NCBI GenBank assembly: GCA_022820435.1
Contig: JAJEFL010000126.1
Coordinates: 4,419-68,418 of the forward strand
Source of the DNA: Rhodothermales bacterium
GTDB taxonomy: Bacteria > Bacteroidota > Rhodothermia > Rhodothermales > Bin80
Length of the DNA stretch: 64,000 nucleotides
Direction: 5' to 3'
The position numbers and the translations under genes are program-made. The notes under the pieces were generated by a model. The model saw only the letters and a program-made list of their open reading frames with translations, was not told the DNA's origin and searched no databases. This document shows, piece by piece, positions 46,601 to 64,000 of the stretch (positions are counted from its first letter, which is position 1; every line of letters starts with the position of its first letter).

Positions 46601-48601
46601 TCATTCTCCAATGATTGTGTTTCTCACGTACTGCTTAAAGGTGCCAACATCAATGTAACAGTCATAGCCGGTCTGGTTGACGATCTGATAGGTTTCAGCA
46701 GGCTCATTCAGAAGCAGTGCCGCAGGCCGTCCCTGCCCCTCTTGAATCCCATTCGGCCAGGCCAAGTCAATGATTACACGATTACCGATTTCAGACTCGC
46801 CCGCCAAGTCGTAGCCGAATTCCCCGGCCGGCAGTCCGTTGGATGCCATCCATGTTTGAAGATTTTTCAATTCCTCCTCTTCGTCGACACTGGAAATATG
46901 GGAATCAGGTCTGGACGGTGCAATTCCACGGCGTTGCCCACAGGCAGTATCTTCATTTTGGGAATGTTCAGGACTGAGTTCCGTTAAATACCTGTTTGCA
47001 GCGTCTGCCAGCAGTTGACGTCGCGCCTCCAGAAAATCAGGGTAATTCTCAATCTTCCACAATTCCGCATCCATCGGAATCCACTGAGATTCCAGTACTT
47101 CCGGGTGATGCTCCTGAACCCAGGGGAAGTATCCTTCTGTACCCATGCGGCGAAGGTCATCATCATGACTCCCTTTCACAAACCTGGAGGGGTCGGCCGG
47201 TGCGGCAGCGCTGATCCATTGATTGCAATTCGCGGTAAGGAAGCAGAAGTTTCCAACTGCATTCACTTGGGGCCGCAGGTATCCTTCTTTATAAAGTACC
47301 GCTTTGGGGAAGATATGATGAGCCTGCAGTTTTGCCCCCTTCCCCAGCAGCCCGGTCTTAAGTTGAATTCCGGTGCAAAAATCTCTGGCCCCGCCCATTC
47401 TCGTCATCCAGTAGAGAATCGGATAGGAGTAGGCCCCGATTGACCAGGAGTCAAAGTCAGCGGGAATAATTTGAGGACGCCCCCAGGTCGTCCCAATCTC
47501 TGCAAGCAGCCGCTTGATCCCTTCTGGCGTGCCGTCAATCTTTTCCAAAGTTCGCTTGATTTTTGTTTCGGTACTCCCGGAAAAGCGTCCATGCATTCCC
47601 GCCCTCAAGTACCAGTAGAGCAGTAAATTCCACTCTTTCTGGTCCAGGAATTTAGCTTCGTGCAACTCCAGATGCCGAACGACAACGGGAATCGCATATT
47701 TGGCAAACAGCACTCGATCATGATCCAGTCCCAGCGTACCTGAAATCTGGTTCAGTGTCTCATCCACATGCCCAACAGTCTTTTTAAGTCCATTTTCGAA
47801 TGTATCTCGTGGGGTGGTGTGCAAGTGTCGGAAAGCTGCCTCGCCATGTACGGCCGCATTGACACATCTCAAAAGCCAATCCAGTGTGAAGTAGAAGCCC
47901 TGTTTTTTCCATTTCCTGACATTTTTGCGCATTACCTCTCTTGCGTTCGGCCATTTTGCAGAAATTTTTGCCAGTGCCAAATCGCCTGTTGACAATCGGG
48001 TGCCTGCACTATTTAAGCGGTTGAAAATGTCAACGACTTCATCAGATTCACCTTCCTTGGCTATAACTTCGTCAATATGGAAGTCCTTTTCTCGTAAATC
48101 AAGCAAACGGTTTAGGCGGTGTCCAATTTTAATCTGCAATTTCAATTGTGAAGTAGTTTCGGGCGAGTCAAAATTGGTTGCGCATTGTTCAAGTATGATG
48201 TTTTCTATCCCACCAGGTCCTGCTTTCATGACCTTTGTCACGTCAAACCAGAATGGATCACCTTTCATTTTGATTGGTTGATAAAATTCAAACCTTTCTT
48301 CTATAGCGTGGAAATAGAGGCCTTTGAATGCCTTTTCGTCTCCGGAGAAGAAATTAGGGGGACTGCCTTTAATCACACCGTAGAGCGAAGTTACCCTCTG
48401 CTGCCCATCCAATAATAGATCTACATGAACATCATCTCGTTTAGTGGTCCATGTGAGAAGACTTCCTACTGGATGTTTCCGGTACAGTGAGTCAAAGAAA
48501 TCTCGTACTTGCCTCCGCTTCCAGACATATCCGCGTTGAAATTCTGGAAGAATGAGCTTCTCGGCGGCTATGTTAACGAGAATGCTGTCAACTGTTGGCA
48601 T
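46601..48601 (-). CDS. DUF262/DUF1524 (GmrSD-like) nuclease with extra C-terminal domain
   Basis: LPEFQRGYVW and LLLDGQQRVTSL (DUF262 hallmarks). HHIFPKA...VGNFCFLTANCNQ is a His-Me finger/DUF1524-like segment. About 130 further residues end in IDLAWPNG...ALLLNE. The start was taken at MPTVDS (48601); the track ORF extends to 48694. Confidence 0.8.
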   Translation of the reverse strand: MPTVDSILVNIAAEKLILPEFQRGYVWKRRQVRDFFDSLYRKHPVGSLLTWTTKRDDVHVDLLLDGQQRVTSLYGVIKGSPPNFFSGDEKAFKGLYFHAIEERFEFYQPIKMKGDPFWFDVTKVMKAGPGGIENIILEQCATNFDSPETTSQLKLQIKIGHRLNRLLDLREKDFHIDEVIAKEGESDEVVDIFNRLNSAGTRLSTGDLALAKISAKWPNAREVMRKNVRKWKKQGFYFTLDWLLRCVNAAVHGEAAFRHLHTTPRDTFENGLKKTVGHVDETLNQISGTLGLDHDRVLFAKYAIPVVVRHLELHEAKFLDQKEWNLLLYWYLRAGMHGRFSGSTETKIKRTLEKIDGTPEGIKRLLAEIGTTWGRPQIIPADFDSWSIGAYSYPILYWMTRMGGARDFCTGIQLKTGLLGKGAKLQAHHIFPKAVLYKEGYLRPQVNAVGNFCFLTANCNQWISAAAPADPSRFVKGSHDDDLRRMGTEGYFPWVQEHHPEVLESQWIPMDAELWKIENYPDFLEARRQLLADAANRYLTELSPEHSQNEDTACGQRRGIAPSRPDSHISSVDEEEELKNLQTWMASNGLPAGEFGYDLAGESEIGNRVIIDLAWPNGIQEGQGRPAALLLNEPAETYQIVNQTGYDCYIDVGTFKQYVRNTIIGE

Positions 48602-48791
48602 GATAAGCGATTGATTTGTCCGTGTTAAGAAAAGAGTTGCACGACCCGAAAATACATATTTTTGGCATGTATACCAAACGTCCCTCTGCAGCATCGTTCT
48701 TGCTCACTGTGCGCATTGCTTGAGGGCCGTCTCCAGATACTGAACTTTGAAACTTCGCTATCAATGGTTAAATTGTGATTTTTGCATTCCC

Positions 48792-52025: not shown

Positions 52026-55000
52026 TTACTTCTGAAGGGTCATTCTGCGCGTGTGGACAATCCTGCCATCCAATTCCATCCGGTAGATGTATATGCCACT
52101 GGAATAAGCATTCGCATTCCACTGTAATCTGTGCACCCCAGGCGCATAAACCCGGTCCGTTAAATCCGACACCTTCCGTCCGGTCACATCAAAAACAGCA
52201 AGGCGGACATGTGAATCGTGAGATATGGAAAATTCTATATTCGTTGACGCATTAAATGGATTCGGGTAGTTCTGGCTCAGGCTAAATTCAGACGGCAATT
52301 CGGAAACTGATTCTTCCGTAGATGTGTGAATGTCAATTTCCGATAGAGGCAGCGTCCATACACCGCGCCCATGCGTGCCGACAATGAGCTCATCATCCCG
52401 GATCTTCATTCTCCACACAGATGCAGCAGGTAAACCGTTATCCGCATAATTCCACTGAGCACCATGATCATCCGACACAAAGAGGCCAATCTCCGTGCCC
52501 GCCCAGAATACATGCGGTGCATGCGGCATAATGATCAAATCATACACAGCGACGTTCGGGAATCCGTTCGTACTGGTTTCTGATGGCGAAAAACCGGACA
52601 GATCCGTCCAGGTCTGCCCGTAATCCTTCGTCTCCAGAATCTTGGGTTTATATGGCAGGGAAAAGAGTGCATATGCCGTCCCGTCTTCAAGTGGATGCGT
52701 TGCGAGTCCGGAAATGTCACCCCGGGGCGCATTGTCCATTGTGGGCAAGGCGGCTTGATTGAAGGACCGGCCCCTGTCTCTGGAAACATGCAGCATCCGA
52801 TAAGGATACAGTCCGCAGCCTGCCCATACTACATTTGATCTGGAAAGCGAAACTCTAACCTTACATCCATCCCAGGAATTCCACGAATCTTCAATTGATG
52901 TCAGATTCCAGGTCAATCCGAAGTCTCTCGAAACCATCACTCCCTCCGCCTTTACCAGATATACGTCGTCTGGAGCACGATCACTGTTATCAATAGATGT
53001 GAGAAAGATGCCATTTATGGCATCAAAGGGGGACGTTCGCTCCCATCGTCCACCGCCATCAGTTGTTCGGGCTACGAGGTCTCTCTGTGCAGTGACCAGA
53101 ATTTTACGCCGATCTCCAGGATGCCAGATTGTCTCAATACCATCACCGCTATAAACAGATCTCCATCCACTCCCGCTGGTCGGTGCGGTGCCTGACCTCC
53201 AACTCCCATTATCTTGCAGGCCTGTGACATAATCGGATGTTCCCGGCGCCTTTGCTACACCATAAACCTGCGAAGTATTATAACCGGAGTGGGCTCTGTC
53301 CGTCTCACGAAAGGTTTTGCCGTTGTCTTTGGATATGGCAACTCCCCCGTCATTTACATTCAGGATCCAGAATTTGTTTTCAGCTTCATTAATTGGTAAT
53401 GGATAGATACCGTGATGGTCCACATGCACCGTCCTCCCTGGGTCAATTTCCTCATCTAAGGATCGAACATAGGAATAACTGTTATAGATGAATTCCAGGG
53501 TGACCGTCTGATTTGGCAGGTTATCCGGAGTCCATGCAGCGCCGGATGCCAGAACCGGTAACAGACCATAAACCATCCCTTTGTCAACGCCCCCATTTTG
53601 GGCGATACGGGAATCGGGAGCAGCATCACTGTAATCGTATTTATGAACAAAAATGAATTCATAACTCTGCAAATCACGGGTCTCCAGATTTTCGCTGCGA
53701 TAGTATTCAATCAGATTAAATTTGCCATCCTCCGCCTGATCACGAAAAGAAACCATAAGCTGACGGTTATTGTCCACATCCCACACCTGAAACGGAACAT
53801 CAACATAATCGGCAAACATGTAGCGAAAGAAGGGAACCTCGGGGCCTCCATTGCCATATCTGCCCGCGGTTTTGGAAACCCAGAAACGGTGGGCTTTTTG
53901 CGAACCTTGGCCGAACCTTATTTCGATGTTGGTAAAATCCTCCTCTTCGGTGTCGAGTGACCGGAATCTTCCGGAATAGGCTCTGCCGTCAAACGCCTCC
54001 CCATCAATATTCCGAAATTCGAGCCACGAATCCGTGCCTCCATGATTCAGCCTGCCCGGCAATGGGTCGCCAGTTATTTTTTCACCAGACAGTACAAGAC
54101 GATACAGCACAATTCCGCCAACGAACACAATGTTCGGATCGTAAGGATGTACTGCAATCGAATTATTAAACCATCCCTGGCCACCCATCCACCCACTCCA
54201 GTCCGTTGTTTCTGATGTTGGCCACCAATTCAAACCACCATCATCACTCCGATAGAGTTGTGCTTCAACGGCTCCGTCTACAGAGGCATATGCTATGTTT
54301 GGATGCGAGGGCGAATACGCCAATTCGGTTCTGCGCATTTCGTCGACATGGTTGATCCAGGCAAACTCCCAGGTTTGCCCCGCATCATCTGAAACCAGGA
54401 TTTCCCCGCTTTGTCTGGCAGATGCAATCTGCCGGTTAAAATTGCCCGGCTGTGCTCGTAAATCCTGTACGACCCCTTCCTGTGAGGTCTGTTCCCAACT
54501 CGATCCACCGTCGGTGGACCGGAAAATCCCGTAATTGGTGGCTGCCAGCACCACATCTGGATTTGAAGGATCTACAGCTAGCCGGTTCACATATCTGAAC
54601 TGATCACGATCTGCGGTTGAAGCCAGCTGTGTCCAGATCTCACCTTTGTCAGATGACTTGAAAATACCATATCCTGCGACCGAACCGGCTCCTGCCATAC
54701 TTTCGCCAGTCCCCATGTAGATAATATTGGGATTGCTTTCTGCCATGGTCAGGGCTGAGACTGACAGATTTGGTAAATGGTCCGTCAGAGACACCCAGTT
54801 TTCTCCCCCGTCTGTCGTCTTCCACAGTCCGCCGGACACAGATCCTGCATACCATGTATGCATATTTGGATCCTCTGGATCTACAAGAAGCGCCCGCGTC
54901 CGTCCACCGACATTTCCTGGTCCCCGTTCACTCCAGTCCAGTTTGATCCCGGGGGTTTTCGCCATTGCAAGCGCTTTCTGGAATTCCCTGATCTGATATC

Positions 55001-55217
55001 CTGCTGAATACTCCTCTGTGCCATCTATGGGGGTTCTAATATCACGGTGGTATTTAAAAAAGCGATCAGGATCCCCTTTTGAGGGAGAGTAGGTATCTTC
55101 GTGGTGCAAAGTCTCTGAAGAATCAGACTCTGAAATCTCTCCTTTCTGTAGCAGGGCAGCCGTAAGTGTCAATAACAGAACAACGAATCCAGCAATAGCT
55201 GCGAACTTGAATTTCAT
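52026..55217 (-). CDS. BNR/Asp-box repeat (sortilin-VPS10/GH74-like) protein with T9SS C-terminal sorting domain
   Basis: About 11 SxDxGxTW-type Asp boxes (STDGGSSWEQ, SDDAGQTWEF, TKDYGQTWTD and others). The C-terminus LSQNYPNPFNASTNIEF...GIYIYRMELDGRIVHTRRMTLQK is a typical T9SS tail. Confidence 0.8.
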   Translation of the reverse strand: MKFKFAAIAGFVVLLLTLTAALLQKGEISESDSSETLHHEDTYSPSKGDPDRFFKYHRDIRTPIDGTEEYSAGYQIREFQKALAMAKTPGIKLDWSERGPGNVGGRTRALLVDPEDPNMHTWYAGSVSGGLWKTTDGGENWVSLTDHLPNLSVSALTMAESNPNIIYMGTGESMAGAGSVAGYGIFKSSDKGEIWTQLASTADRDQFRYVNRLAVDPSNPDVVLAATNYGIFRSTDGGSSWEQTSQEGVVQDLRAQPGNFNRQIASARQSGEILVSDDAGQTWEFAWINHVDEMRRTELAYSPSHPNIAYASVDGAVEAQLYRSDDGGLNWWPTSETTDWSGWMGGQGWFNNSIAVHPYDPNIVFVGGIVLYRLVLSGEKITGDPLPGRLNHGGTDSWLEFRNIDGEAFDGRAYSGRFRSLDTEEEDFTNIEIRFGQGSQKAHRFWVSKTAGRYGNGGPEVPFFRYMFADYVDVPFQVWDVDNNRQLMVSFRDQAEDGKFNLIEYYRSENLETRDLQSYEFIFVHKYDYSDAAPDSRIAQNGGVDKGMVYGLLPVLASGAAWTPDNLPNQTVTLEFIYNSYSYVRSLDEEIDPGRTVHVDHHGIYPLPINEAENKFWILNVNDGGVAISKDNGKTFRETDRAHSGYNTSQVYGVAKAPGTSDYVTGLQDNGSWRSGTAPTSGSGWRSVYSGDGIETIWHPGDRRKILVTAQRDLVARTTDGGGRWERTSPFDAINGIFLTSIDNSDRAPDDVYLVKAEGVMVSRDFGLTWNLTSIEDSWNSWDGCKVRVSLSRSNVVWAGCGLYPYRMLHVSRDRGRSFNQAALPTMDNAPRGDISGLATHPLEDGTAYALFSLPYKPKILETKDYGQTWTDLSGFSPSETSTNGFPNVAVYDLIIMPHAPHVFWAGTEIGLFVSDDHGAQWNYADNGLPAASVWRMKIRDDELIVGTHGRGVWTLPLSEIDIHTSTEESVSELPSEFSLSQNYPNPFNASTNIEFSISHDSHVRLAVFDVTGRKVSDLTDRVYAPGVHRLQWNANAYSSGIYIYRMELDGRIVHTRRMTLQK

Positions 55218-61664: not shown

Positions 61665-62330
61665 ATGGCATTACGTAAAGCTCCAGCAGCCGATCTAAAA
61701 CGAACTTACGGATTCTTTGTCCAGGTTGGAATGATTGCTTCACTCCTCTTGCTCATTCTTGCGTTCAACGCAAACCTAGAACGTGGGGAAGCGATGGAAA
61801 TTGAGCAAGTTCAGCAGGAAGTTGTCCAAATGGAGGAAATCCTGCAGACGGAGCAAATTCAAAAGCCGCCGCCACCTCCGCGTCCTCCCGTTCCGGTGGA
61901 AGTCCCAAATGACGAGATCCTGGAAGATGACGAGTTGGATCTTGATGCTTCGCTTGACTTGGATGCGCCGATCAATGTTCCGCCACCGCCACCTCCACCG
62001 GACGAAGAAGAGGTGATTGAGGAGCCTGAAATTTTCGAGATTGTTGAGCAGATGCCTGAACTGATTGGAGGAATTCCAGGCTTACAGTCTAAAGCAAAAT
62101 ATCCTGAAATCGCACGTAAGGCGAATGTGGAAGGTCGCGTGATTGTGCAGTTTATCGTTGATGAAAACGGTGATGTGAGCGAACCTACGATCGTGCGCGG
62201 TATTGGGGGTGGTTGCGATCAGGAAGCGATCCGGGTCATTACCGAGCATGCCAAGTTCATTCCTGGACGGCAGCGTGGTCGCCCGGTGAAAGTAAAATTC
62301 TCGCTTCCGATTCAGTTCAAGTTGCGTTAA
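61665..62330 (+). CDS. tonB: energy transducer TonB (full length)
   Basis: N-terminal TM, a Pro-rich spacer (KPPPPPRPPVPVEVP...PPPPPPPDEEE) and a TonB-C domain (YPEIARKANVEGRVIVQFIVDENG...PVKVKFSLPIQFKL). Confidence 0.85.
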   Translation: MALRKAPAADLKRTYGFFVQVGMIASLLLLILAFNANLERGEAMEIEQVQQEVVQMEEILQTEQIQKPPPPPRPPVPVEVPNDEILEDDELDLDASLDLDAPINVPPPPPPPDEEEVIEEPEIFEIVEQMPELIGGIPGLQSKAKYPEIARKANVEGRVIVQFIVDENGDVSEPTIVRGIGGGCDQEAIRVITEHAKFIPGRQRGRPVKVKFSLPIQFKLR

Positions 62331-62350
62331 TCCGTTACTTTTCAAGAAAA

Positions 62351-62387
62351 ATGCCCTGCACCTTCCTAAGATTCAGGGCATTTTTTT
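62351..62387 (+). terminator. intrinsic terminator after tonB
   Basis: ATGCCCTG (62351-62358) pairs with CAGGGCAT (62374-62381), followed by a T7 run. Confidence 0.65.
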
Positions 62388-62576
62388 GGCCCATGACAGA
62401 AACCCTTTTCTGCCGGAAGGACAGTTCTCGTGTGCGCACAGGTTCGGTGATGGTACTGTTGAGATATCGCTCAGGGAATTGAGCAACCCGTCATGGTAGG
62501 GAAGGACATTTATTCGTAACGACATTGAACTTCGTTTTGACGGTCATTTAAACCCAGACTATAGAAATCTATTTCC

Positions 62577-62957
62577 ATGATTCGCATTTTGTTAGTTTTC
62601 TTCATCCTCATTGGTGTCAGTGCCTGCAGTATGTCAGAGTCGGTTGATGATTCTGAAGCCTTTGAAATGGTTGAGCAGATGCCTGCATTGATTGGAGGCT
62701 TTGCAGGGCTGCAGGCCAGGGTAAAATATCCTGAGATTGCTCGCAGGATGAAGGTGGAAGGCCGAGTGATTGTACAGTTTATTGTGGATGAAAATGGCAC
62801 TGTGTACGATCCTTCCGTCGTGCGCGGTATTGGTTCAGGCTGTGATGAAGAGGCAGCCAGAGTCCTGAAGGAGCACGCAAAATTCGTTCCCGGTCGACAA
62901 GATGGGCACCCGGTAAAAGTGAAATTCTCACTTCCGGTCATATTCAAGTTGAGTTGA
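62577..62957 (+). CDS. lipoprotein consisting only of a TonB C-terminal domain (paralog 1)
   Basis: Lipobox FFILIGVSAC, then directly EQMPALIGGFAGLQARVKYPEIARRMKVEGRVIVQFIVDENG... It is very similar to the C-terminus of the upstream TonB and has no Pro-rich spacer. Confidence 0.8.
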   Translation: MIRILLVFFILIGVSACSMSESVDDSEAFEMVEQMPALIGGFAGLQARVKYPEIARRMKVEGRVIVQFIVDENGTVYDPSVVRGIGSGCDEEAARVLKEHAKFVPGRQDGHPVKVKFSLPVIFKLS

Positions 62958-63191
62958 GTGACCATCATTGCCACAGATCTGCCCTGTTCCTGTCGAAGAT
63001 GCAGAGAATATTTTTCACCCCTTTCCTGCCGGAAAGCCCCCTATGTGATGCGCACAGGTCGGTGCTTGTATCGTTGAGATCTCTCGTCCGGAGGATTGAG
63101 CGATCCGTCACGGCAGGCAAGAGATTTAGTCATGATGACCTTGAACTTCGTTTTTGTGGTCATTGAAATCCAACTATAGAAATCTACTTCC

Positions 63192-63572
63192 ATGATCCGT
63201 ACCCTGTTATTTTTCTTCATTCTCATTAGTGTCAGTGCCTGCAGTACGTCTGAATCGGTTGATGACTCTGAAGTCTTTGAAACGGTTGAGCAGATGCCTG
63301 AACTCATTGGAGGCATAAATAGTCTGCTGACAAATGCGACGTACCCTGAGATGGCCCGTATGGCGGGTATTGAGGGAAAAGTTATTGTAGAGTTTGTTGT
63401 AGACGCAAAGGGAAATGTGCGTGATGCTTCCATTGTACAGGGCCTCGGCGGGGGGTGTGATGAAGAGGCAATCAGAGTCCTGAATGAGCATGCAAAATTC
63501 ACACCCGGTCGCCAGGATGGCCGTGCCGTAAATGTGAAGATGACACTTCCAATCACGTTCAAATTGACTTGA
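63192..63572 (+). CDS. lipoprotein consisting only of a TonB C-terminal domain (paralog 2)
   Basis: Lipobox FFILISVSAC, then EQMPELIGGINSLLTNATYPEMARMAGIEGKVIVEFVVDAKG...; 126 aa, the same length as paralog 1. Confidence 0.8.
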   Translation: MIRTLLFFFILISVSACSTSESVDDSEVFETVEQMPELIGGINSLLTNATYPEMARMAGIEGKVIVEFVVDAKGNVRDASIVQGLGGGCDEEAIRVLNEHAKFTPGRQDGRAVNVKMTLPITFKLT

Positions 63573-63594
63573 ATCCTCTCCCCGTCCAATGGAT

Positions 63595-63631
63595 ATGCCC
63601 TGTTCCTGTTGAGGTGCAGGGCATATTTTTT
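63595..63631 (+). terminator. intrinsic terminator after paralog 2
   Basis: ATGCCCTG (63595-63602) pairs with CAGGGCAT (63617-63624), followed by ATTTTTT. Confidence 0.65.
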
Positions 63632-63801
63632 GATCCTTAACCGGAGTATATCCCGGTCAAGAGAATTTTGGTCAGCGCAGATGGGGCCGTTCGTGAATCA
63701 CGGTGTCCCTGGGCAGGAGAGATTGGCACGGAGTTGTTTTTTTTTTGAGATCGGGCATTATATTTGTTTAGCGACAGTGACCATAGAATGTATCGTAGAT
63801 C

Positions 63802-64000
63802 ATGCCCCGTACTCTCCTGCGAATCCTGTTCCTCGTTGGCGTGAGTGCCTGCGGCACACCTCAACCCCTGACAGAGTTTCTACCTGCCGAGACGGTTTCC
63901 ACTCCCGGCGGCCAAATGCCAAAGCTGATTGGAGGGATTGCCCGATTACAACAGTATGTCAATCATCGTGCGTGTCGTGAGAACTCCCCGAAGATGTGGA
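63802..64000 (+). CDS. third lipoprotein, TonB-C-like N-terminal part (runs off window)
   Basis: Absent from the ORF track because it is open-ended. ATG 63802 gives MPRTLLRILFLVGVSACGTPQ...GGQMPKLIGGIARLQQYV, with no stop before base 64000. Past QQYV the sequence diverges from the expected YPE.A motif. Confidence 0.45.
   Translation, partial: MPRTLLRILFLVGVSACGTPQPLTEFLPAETVSTPGGQMPKLIGGIARLQQYVNHRACRENSPKMW

Follow-up and report, generated by a model that had tools for sequence, protein, structure and literature searches.

TonB is usually seen as one protein with one job, and it is thought to be limiting relative to the many transporters. Coupling to ExbB-ExbD needs both the TonB membrane helix and a spacer that spans the periplasm. 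A survey of Bacteroides thetaiotaomicron reports 11 proteins with a TonB C-terminal domain (TonB_C), several of them with extra or doubled domains, and such architectures have not been functionally characterised (PMC10350073). Here we describe a locus in a 64,000-nucleotide stretch of DNA from an uncultured Rhodothermales bacterium (contig JAJEFL010000126.1, positions 4,419 to 68,418 of the forward strand; the whole stretch is called the window below), in which a canonical tonB gene is followed by an array of lipoprotein (LP) genes, LP1 to LP4, the last of them beyond the window. Judging from their sequences, LP1 to LP4 are very probably exported, lipid-anchored, stand-alone TonB C-terminal domains, long-standing paralogues of the neighbouring tonB. 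With canonical TonB (that of Escherichia coli, TonB4 and TonB6 of B. thetaiotaomicron, and the 221-residue neighbour) they have in common the C-terminal domain, its YP motif and its C-terminal strand, the last two being conserved in LP1, LP2 and domain 2 of LP4, but they lack the N-terminal helix and the proline-rich spacer and carry a lipobox instead. LP4 resembles TonB9 and TonB10 of B. thetaiotaomicron in having two TonB_C domains, but the locus differs from such multi-domain proteins in that three single-domain lipoprotein genes stand in a row beside tonB.

An original prediction, made from the sequence of the window without database searches, had proposed a canonical TonB followed by lipoproteins consisting only of a TonB_C domain; the open reading frames (ORFs) lie at the coordinates given there, the Pfam domains agree, and the peptides quoted are exact (coordinates are collected in Table 1). 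The neighbouring TonB has a hydrophobic helix (FFVQVGMIASLLLLILAF), two proline runs (KPPPPPRPPVPVEVP and VPPPPPPPD) and, at residues 144-220, a match to PF03544 TonB_C (Pfam, E=4.5e-20); TIGR01352 (NCBIfam) also matches, and orthologues of about 220 residues are present across Rhodothermales. LP1 opens with MIRILLVFFILIGVSAC and LP2 with MIRTLLFFFILISVSAC, after which both have a 12-residue acidic tether and then the domain. Residues 48-125 match PF03544 with 77.4 bits in LP1 (E=1.2e-21) and 83.2 bits in LP2 (E=1.9e-23), against a cut-off of 24.6, and the only NCBIfam domain model to match is TIGR01352 (50.8 and 56.1 bits, respectively, against a cut-off of 27.1). The two proteins share 65-73% amino-acid identity with the neighbouring TonB domain. 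LP3, like LP1 and LP2, has a single domain; it gives 21.3 bits with TIGR01352 (E=2.6e-4), below the cut-off, and is a divergent TonB_C without the YP motif. The paralogues diverge most just before this motif, in a stretch that we take to be the counterpart of the region around Q160 of E. coli TonB implicated in TonB-box recognition, an assumption that would suit paralogues with differing preferences and that we offer only as a lead.

The lipoprotein signals were assessed with a script that applies the PROSITE PS51257 rule to LP1-LP4 of three genomes. LP1, LP2 and LP4 conform to the rule in all three (Cys17 or Cys19, Arg3), and LP3 departs from the strict form solely through Arg7, its GVSAC box being present. 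The GVSAC lipobox originally proposed for the short proteins thus stands as a lipobox in LP1 and LP2, but the box of LP2 reads SVSAC. All four signal peptides are mutually alike, following the pattern M-x-R-[IT]-..-[GS]-x-S-A-C, and this stretch of 17-19 residues, ending in the lipobox Cys, is the only hydrophobic segment of the LPs; there is no helix for docking to ExbB-ExbD. Twelve residues separate Cys17 from the first domain residue, compared with about 95 in the neighbouring TonB, and the tether is homologous to the last residues of the TonB linker, as seen in the pair EEPEIFEIVEQMPELIGG / DDSEAFEMVEQMPALIGG. An AlphaFold2 model of LP1, built on a 30-sequence alignment, has a mean predicted local distance difference test score (pLDDT) of 84.5, with values above 90 for residues 30-126, which adopt the TonB_C fold, and low confidence for residues 1-23. 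In a Foldseek search of this model against the PDB, only TonB, HasB and FusB C-terminal domains were found at probability 1.00, among them 6i97_D, 9dc4_T, 5lw8 and 1u07, and the top matches include TonB C-terminal domains in complex with FoxA (6i97), TbpA (9dc4), BtuB (2gsk) and FhuA (2grx). By sequence, the solved relatives number only three, all of them C-terminal domains of TonB or of the TonB homologue FusB. The model obtained for LP4 was too poor (mean pLDDT 63.6) for a reading of its domain packing.

The acidic tether could be read in another way, with the stretch CSMSESVDDSE serving as an export signal, as is found in many lipoproteins of Bacteroidota, and the LPs being surface-exposed or otherwise localised binders of an external ligand or substrate protein, as in the FusB-ferredoxin interaction. 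The tether after Cys+1 is indeed acidic in LP1 and LP2, structures of FusB and FusB-ferredoxin (7zc8, 9hi3) are among the fold matches, and a protein with a Por_Secre_tail domain encoded in the window indicates that the organism has a type IX secretion system. However, the export signals described for Bacteroidota have their acidic residues at +2 to +4, whereas those of LP1 and LP2 begin at +5; LP3 and LP4 are without them, and the acidic stretch is the tail of TonB's own linker. We regard surface exposure as highly improbable.

Following the array past the end of the window, as the original prediction had recommended, was done on the source contig (ENA ERZ23491379 scaffold_126, 155 kb, here L001; window position = L001 position + 53191). 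The probable third copy announced in that prediction is there in full: LP3 is a protein of 129 residues whose gene ends at L001 11000 (window 64191). An 835-nucleotide spacer follows, and about 300 nucleotides past the window end it holds a decayed TonB_C relic (..RRIIIQFVTDEHGNVRDP..), which forms an open frame of 155 codons in L001 and has frameshifts and stops in both relatives. The relic is a pseudogene of a further array member. After the spacer comes LP4, a 223-residue lipoprotein (..GLGFSAC). The five-gene array of tonB and LP1-LP4 is kept in three related Rhodothermales genomes, the others being JAJECE01 (L002), where LP1 is 97% identical, and GCA_022824385 (L054-L056), where it is 87% identical. 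In a farther relative (L003), tonB is followed by one single-domain lipoprotein and an LP4 orthologue, and in two more (L004, L015) by one lipoprotein with TonB_C. The LP4 family comprises about two dozen clusters at 90% identity, with lengths of 215-229 residues; in 19 aligned clusters, which are 53-100% identical, the lipobox Cys and the YP motif of domain 2 are invariant.

Codon-aligned comparisons were used to obtain synonymous divergence (dS) and the ratio of non-synonymous to synonymous rates (dN/dS). Values for one genome pair, L001 and L055, are given in Table 1 together with those of two neighbouring genes; over the genomes, LP2 ranges from 0.23 to 0.30, LP3 from 0.18 to 0.26, and LP1-LP4 overall from 0.14 to 0.30, comparable to the 0.16-0.18 of the neighbouring housekeeping genes. 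These ratios indicate that all copies are under purifying selection and are working genes. The relic between LP3 and LP4 does show that copies can die at this locus, as would be expected if the LPs were decaying, non-functional by-products of tandem duplication. Nevertheless, the frames of LP1-LP4 are intact in all three genomes with the low dN/dS just described, and members of the LP4 family at identities as low as 53% still share the invariant Cys and YP motif, so that we give decay next to no credence. Nor are the short genes fragments of longer TonB genes, as the original prediction had already argued, because an in-frame stop lies only 3-4 codons upstream of each ATG and the stop-to-stop segments exceed the LP genes by no more than this. 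A pseudogene or fragment reading of LP1-LP4 is thus ruled out by the intact frames, the upstream stops and dN/dS. Opposite LP1 and LP2, two ORFs of 154 and 182 residues run on the minus strand. Both are probably artefacts of the mirror frame, since the Pfam domain matches and the low dN/dS belong to the plus-strand frames.

The high identity of the LPs to the neighbouring TonB had been attributed to a recent domain-level duplication, an explanation that the synonymous sites do not support. Between paralogues, dS is about 1.4 for the TonB C-terminal domain and LP1 and 0.83 for LP1 and LP2, and it was not computable for the other pairs, compared with 0.1-0.3 for orthologues across the three genomes. 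The duplications must therefore long predate the split of these genomes, and a recent origin is rejected in view of the saturated dS. A domain phylogeny, also recommended at the outset, points the same way: in a neighbour-joining tree of all domains, the LP4 domains and LP3-like proteins fall on old branches common to other species, and LP1 and LP2 adjoin the canonical TonB clade. We also see a tract of about 100 nucleotides (alignment columns 70-178) in LP1 of L055 that is 87-91% identical to tonB, compared with 71-80% for the same columns in L001 and L002. Informative sites in L055 LP1 carry the TonB state at 17 of 19 positions inside the tract and at 3 of 53 outside (Fisher p=1.3e-11, with tract limits that were chosen post hoc). 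The tract is a gene conversion from tonB into LP1 in the GCA_022824385 lineage, and it explains why LP1 is so diverged between genomes whose other genes are 94-99% identical. Taken together, the shared signal peptides, the old LP3 and LP4 groups and the conversion tract indicate that the likeness to TonB reflects selective constraint and concerted evolution, not youth. The simplest history would be that of an old lipoprotein family beside tonB whose domains have been repeatedly overwritten from tonB. The tract spans the YP motif and the first two strands, which suggests that this segment is exchangeable between TonB and LP1; its retention argues that LP1 has to preserve at least some of the surface of TonB.

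Retention of a swapped tonB segment is hard to square with an envelope-structural role, wherein the TonB_C of the LPs would bind peptidoglycan or another envelope part, acting as an outer membrane tether or organiser, comparable to TolA/Pal, with no part in transport. There is a precedent in Anabaena SjdR (TonB1), an unusually short TonB-like protein that is dispensable for siderophore transport and needed for normal septal peptidoglycan (PMC8597729). Domain III of TolA has the same fold and appears at ranks 18-19 of the LP1 fold search, and the array neighbours housekeeping and envelope genes, not uptake genes. However, TonB structures rank far higher than TolA in that search, LP1 and LP2 are much nearer in sequence to a genuine TonB domain than to any TolA, and Pfam finds no peptidoglycan-binding domain (OmpA_C, LysM) in the LPs. 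A structural role therefore appears unlikely to us.

With neither a docking helix nor a spacer, the LPs cannot receive energy from ExbB-ExbD or transmit the proton-motive force. This agrees with the original argument that a lipid-tethered TonB_C cannot reach ExbBD, given that the tether is 12 residues long and that the modelled domain begins only at about residue 30, after a start of low confidence. Not being energisable, the LPs probably modulate TonB-dependent uptake. Among the competitor, regulator and structural roles first suggested, we would rank a competitor or modulator for TonB boxes first, and the reading that we tentatively favour, at somewhat less than an even chance, is that the LPs, which cannot be energised, bind TonB boxes at the periplasmic side of the outer membrane and modulate TonB or compete with it. 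The LPs, whose +2 residues are Ser, Gly and Val, would be lipidated and sent by the default Lol route to the inner leaflet of the outer membrane, and on a tether of 12 residues the domain would be kept at the level at which transporters expose their TonB boxes. There, the domains would bind TonB boxes by TonB-type β-strand pairing but without pulling, and as non-energising competitors or place-holders would set the number and identity of the transporters that TonB engages. The domain with its fold, the lipobox and the lack of anchor and spacer are established, whereas lipidation, an outer membrane location, TonB-box binding and the sign of any effect on transport are inferred. Two precedents are consistent with such a mechanism. 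In E. coli, periplasmic fragments of TonB that are produced in the periplasm inhibit FecA- and FhuA-dependent transport (Howard et al. 2001, PMC99666; cited in PMC9841981), and a natural TonB_C tethered to the outer membrane is found in the MxcH transporter, the N-terminus of whose model, NF038079, matches the LPs at positions 8-85.

Several points weigh against TonB-box competition. An outer membrane destination presumes that lipoproteins of Rhodothermota are sorted by the Lol rules, and the model would fail if the LPs stayed in the inner membrane or were displayed on the surface. Strand pairing consists mostly of backbone contacts, so sequence conservation is no proof of TonB-box binding, and the low TIGR01352 score of LP3 together with its lost YP motif means that the copies need not share one ligand. 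A permanent self-inhibition of uptake also needs a rationale, which might, speculatively, be regulation or protection from TonB-exploiting phages and toxins. Finally, among the large ORFs scanned in the window and the genes up to 10 kb from the array, none was found to be exbB, exbD or a gene for a TonB-dependent transporter, so guilt by association does not connect the LPs to uptake.

The position held by LP1-LP3 is filled differently in some relatives. In L005, L006, L008 and L013, the gene downstream of tonB encodes two to three tandem TonB_C domains fused, with no proline spacer in between, to an N-terminal helix that resembles the one in TonB (FSVQIGLIVALLLV against FFVQVGMIASLLLL), and it is followed by an LP4 orthologue. 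The fused protein is also present in L009, with no LP4 orthologue detected in the stretch covered; L010 is a contig end, where the fused gene lacks its start and only a 79-residue piece resembling domain 2 of LP4 follows. Such a helix-anchored fusion may represent a form of TonB in which domains take the place of the proline rod in bridging the periplasm. On another Rhodothermales contig (L057), we observed a 124-residue protein in which one TonB_C follows a signal peptide of the ordinary, non-lipoprotein type, about 1 kb from a 502-residue protein on the opposite strand that ends in TonB_C.

The fused proteins suggest that TonB_C domains work in groups in this clade, as would suit LPs that pair with TonB's C-terminal domain or the periplasmic domain of ExbD and provide docking or parking sites assisting uptake. 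The strict synteny of the LPs with tonB in several species favours such a helper role, and isolated TonB C-terminal domains are able to dimerise in crystals (1u07), but the crystal dimers of E. coli TonB are reported to be absent in vivo (PMC3005593). The sequences indicate no hetero-dimer interface, and the LP genes have promoter-like and terminator-like elements of their own, forming no operon with tonB, all of which makes a helper role quite unlikely in our view. Returning to TonB-box competition, a bolder form of it can be imagined, which we consider doubtful as a whole: the array would be a dedicated brake or gating layer, in which look-alikes anchored in the outer membrane cap particular TonB boxes with paralogue-specific preference and are kept matched to TonB by gene conversion, and the fused versions of sister species would be a second, 'beads-on-a-string' TonB that spans the periplasm. 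Such a brake could ration limiting TonB among many transporters, or guard against phages and toxins that hijack TonB.

As to expression, the original prediction mentioned stops and terminators between the genes. The stops are present, and hairpins with T-runs follow tonB and LP2, but the hairpin after LP1 is degenerate. The leaders of LP1 and LP2, about 175 nucleotides from terminator to ATG, are 70-72% identical, which is more than expected from the coding dS of the two genes, and their last 50 nucleotides are best conserved by eye. A search with nhmmer found the leader element solely upstream of LP1 and LP2, in the three close genomes. The sequence TTGACG-17-TATAGA, which ends 11 nucleotides before the LP1 ATG, is a candidate promoter read by eye; a sigma-70 consensus scan made no call at this site, because its rule demands a final T. 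The LP1 and LP2 leaders also have, about 90 nucleotides upstream, a GTCATGG box with the potential to pair with the CCATGAT found at the start codon. A known RNA element in the leaders was considered and rejected, as an Rfam scan gave chance-level matches only and the covariation term that RNAalifold assigned to six leaders was -0.11.

Table 1. Features of the tonB-LP locus, of its surroundings and of related sequences. Window coordinates unless another sequence is named; dN/dS is for L001 against L055.
Feature	Sequence	Position	Strand	Description	dN/dS
tonB	window	61665-62330	+	canonical TonB, 221 aa: N-terminal membrane helix, Pro-rich spacer, TonB_C (ORF list, Pfam)	0.06
Terminator-like hairpin and T-run 3' of tonB	window	62347-62392	+	arms 62347-62364 / 62368-62385, 89% complementary, then TTTTTTT	
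LP1 leader/promoter region	window	62398-62576	+	conserved; paralogous to LP2 leader	
LP1	window	62577-62957	+	126 aa: lipoprotein signal peptide (Cys17), 12-residue acidic tether, one TonB_C	0.24
LP2 leader/promoter region	window	63017-63191	+	conserved; paralogous to LP1 leader (62398-62576)	
LP2	window	63192-63572	+	126 aa: lipoprotein signal peptide (SVSAC, Cys17), tether, one TonB_C	0.23
Terminator-like hairpin and T-run 3' of LP2	window	63593-63632	+	arms 63593-63607 / 63612-63626; terminator scan: 63604-63621 and T-run	
LP3, 5' part	window	63802-64000	+	starts MPRTLLRILFLVGVSAC...MPKLIGG; GVSAC lipobox; runs past window end	0.18
TonB_C relic	L001	11105-11572		between LP3 and LP4	
LP4	L001			223 aa, two TonB_C domains	0.14
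YjeF				neighbouring gene	0.16
Big_5				neighbouring gene	0.18
Methyltransferase and nuclease genes	L001	13094-17189		duplicated pair downstream of the array	
ORF antisense to LP1	window	62510-62974	-	154 aa	
ORF antisense to LP2	window	63041-63589	-	182 aa	
GmrSD-type gene	window	46601-48694	-	697 aa, GmrSD_N domain	
Sortilin/BNR-repeat gene	window	52026-55217	-	1063 aa, Por_Secre_tail	
tonB	L055	5092-5757		source of the conversion tract	
LP1	L055	6001-6381		carries the tract, alignment columns 70-178	
Fused multi-TonB_C gene	L005	7785-9020		at LP1-LP3 position	
Fused multi-TonB_C gene	L006	7785-9020		at LP1-LP3 position	
Fused multi-TonB_C gene	L008	7530-8438		at LP1-LP3 position	
Fused multi-TonB_C gene	L009	7875-8666		at LP1-LP3 position	
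Fused multi-TonB_C gene	L013	7866-8672		at LP1-LP3 position	
Small TonB_C gene	L057	6001-6375		124 aa, ordinary signal peptide, one TonB_C	
TonB_C gene	L057	3499-5007		502 aa, ends in TonB_C; strand opposite to the 124-aa gene	
Phage TonB-like gene	L058	2521-3321		266 aa, phage LR756501.1	

The genes upstream of tonB code for MoCF, for a lipoprotein with Big_5 and for YjeF/Nnr, the enzyme of NAD(P)HX repair. The array is directly followed downstream by a duplicated gene pair, in which a type II methyltransferase resembling the EcoRI methylase is joined by a GmrSD/HNH nuclease that is truncated to 110 residues in its first copy; unrelated genes lie beyond. A role of the LPs in anti-phage defence was considered and rejected: PADLOC gave no match for LP1-LP4, its matches being confined to the type II methylase and nuclease genes downstream. 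A second GmrSD-type gene lies about 15 kb upstream of the array, and the large Sortilin/BNR-repeat protein with Por_Secre_tail is encoded between the two.

A HMMER search with LP1 against 1.84 billion representative sequences gave 58,135 matches at E<=1e-3. Nearly all of the best 150 of these have 2-7 tandem TonB_C domains, and most of the N-termini read among them are signal peptides of the cleavable type or single helices. A simple lipobox rule picks out only 3 of 149 top multi-repeat representatives. Shorter forms also occur, such as P0014 (124 residues, an ordinary signal peptide and one TonB_C) and P0022 (147 residues, a helix joined directly to one TonB_C). Source annotations routinely call these anchor-less TonB_C proteins "energy transducer TonB" or "TonB family protein", although energy transduction is beyond them, and phrase searches on TonB lipoproteins, within the literature searchable, found no relevant study. 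Exported proteins consisting only of TonB_C are a large and essentially unstudied class. Phage-borne TonB_C lipoproteins were sought by tblastn of phage records, which gave 9 records, and the idea was dropped, as both of those examined encode full-length, membrane-anchored TonB-like proteins. One of these is a huge uncultured phage (LR756501.1, 735 kb), whose 266-residue protein has a helix, a proline-rich spacer and a TonB_C 41.5% identical to LP1; the other is an unverified contig that looks bacterial. The locus described here is a compact, conserved and selected example beside the parent gene, and makes the role of free TonB C-terminal domains directly testable. If the LPs are natural competitors, they would be a new layer in the control of how Bacteroidota-Rhodothermota take up nutrients, vitamins and glycans, and would call for caution in genome annotation and in counts of 'TonB paralogues'. 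This opens a neglected question and overturns nothing established.

Among known systems, the small outer membrane lipoproteins Llp of phage T5 and Cor of phages phi80 and N15 inactivate FhuA from the periplasmic side. They embody the same idea as that proposed for the LPs, but bear no relation to them in sequence or fold. SjdR is held in the inner membrane by a membrane helix. Comparable to the LPs are its shortness as a TonB-like protein, which leaves the outer membrane out of its reach, and its role outside transport (PMC8597729). It is not a lipoprotein, part of a tandem array or close in sequence. The myxochelin receptor MxcH carries a TonB_C tethered to the outer membrane on the periplasmic side, as we infer for the LPs, but its domain is covalently part of the barrel protein, whereas the LPs are free lipoproteins. 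The fragments of Howard et al. 2001 (J Bacteriol 183:5885, PMC99666) are, like the LPs, an anchor-less C-terminal part of TonB in the periplasm, and they provide the functional model for TonB-box competition; they were soluble, non-lipidated and over-expressed laboratory constructs, while the LPs are natural, conserved genes. In short, the domain itself is well known and its anchor-less exported form is frequent in databases, and what is new here is a conserved tandem array of lipoproteins that exchanges sequence with its parent tonB.

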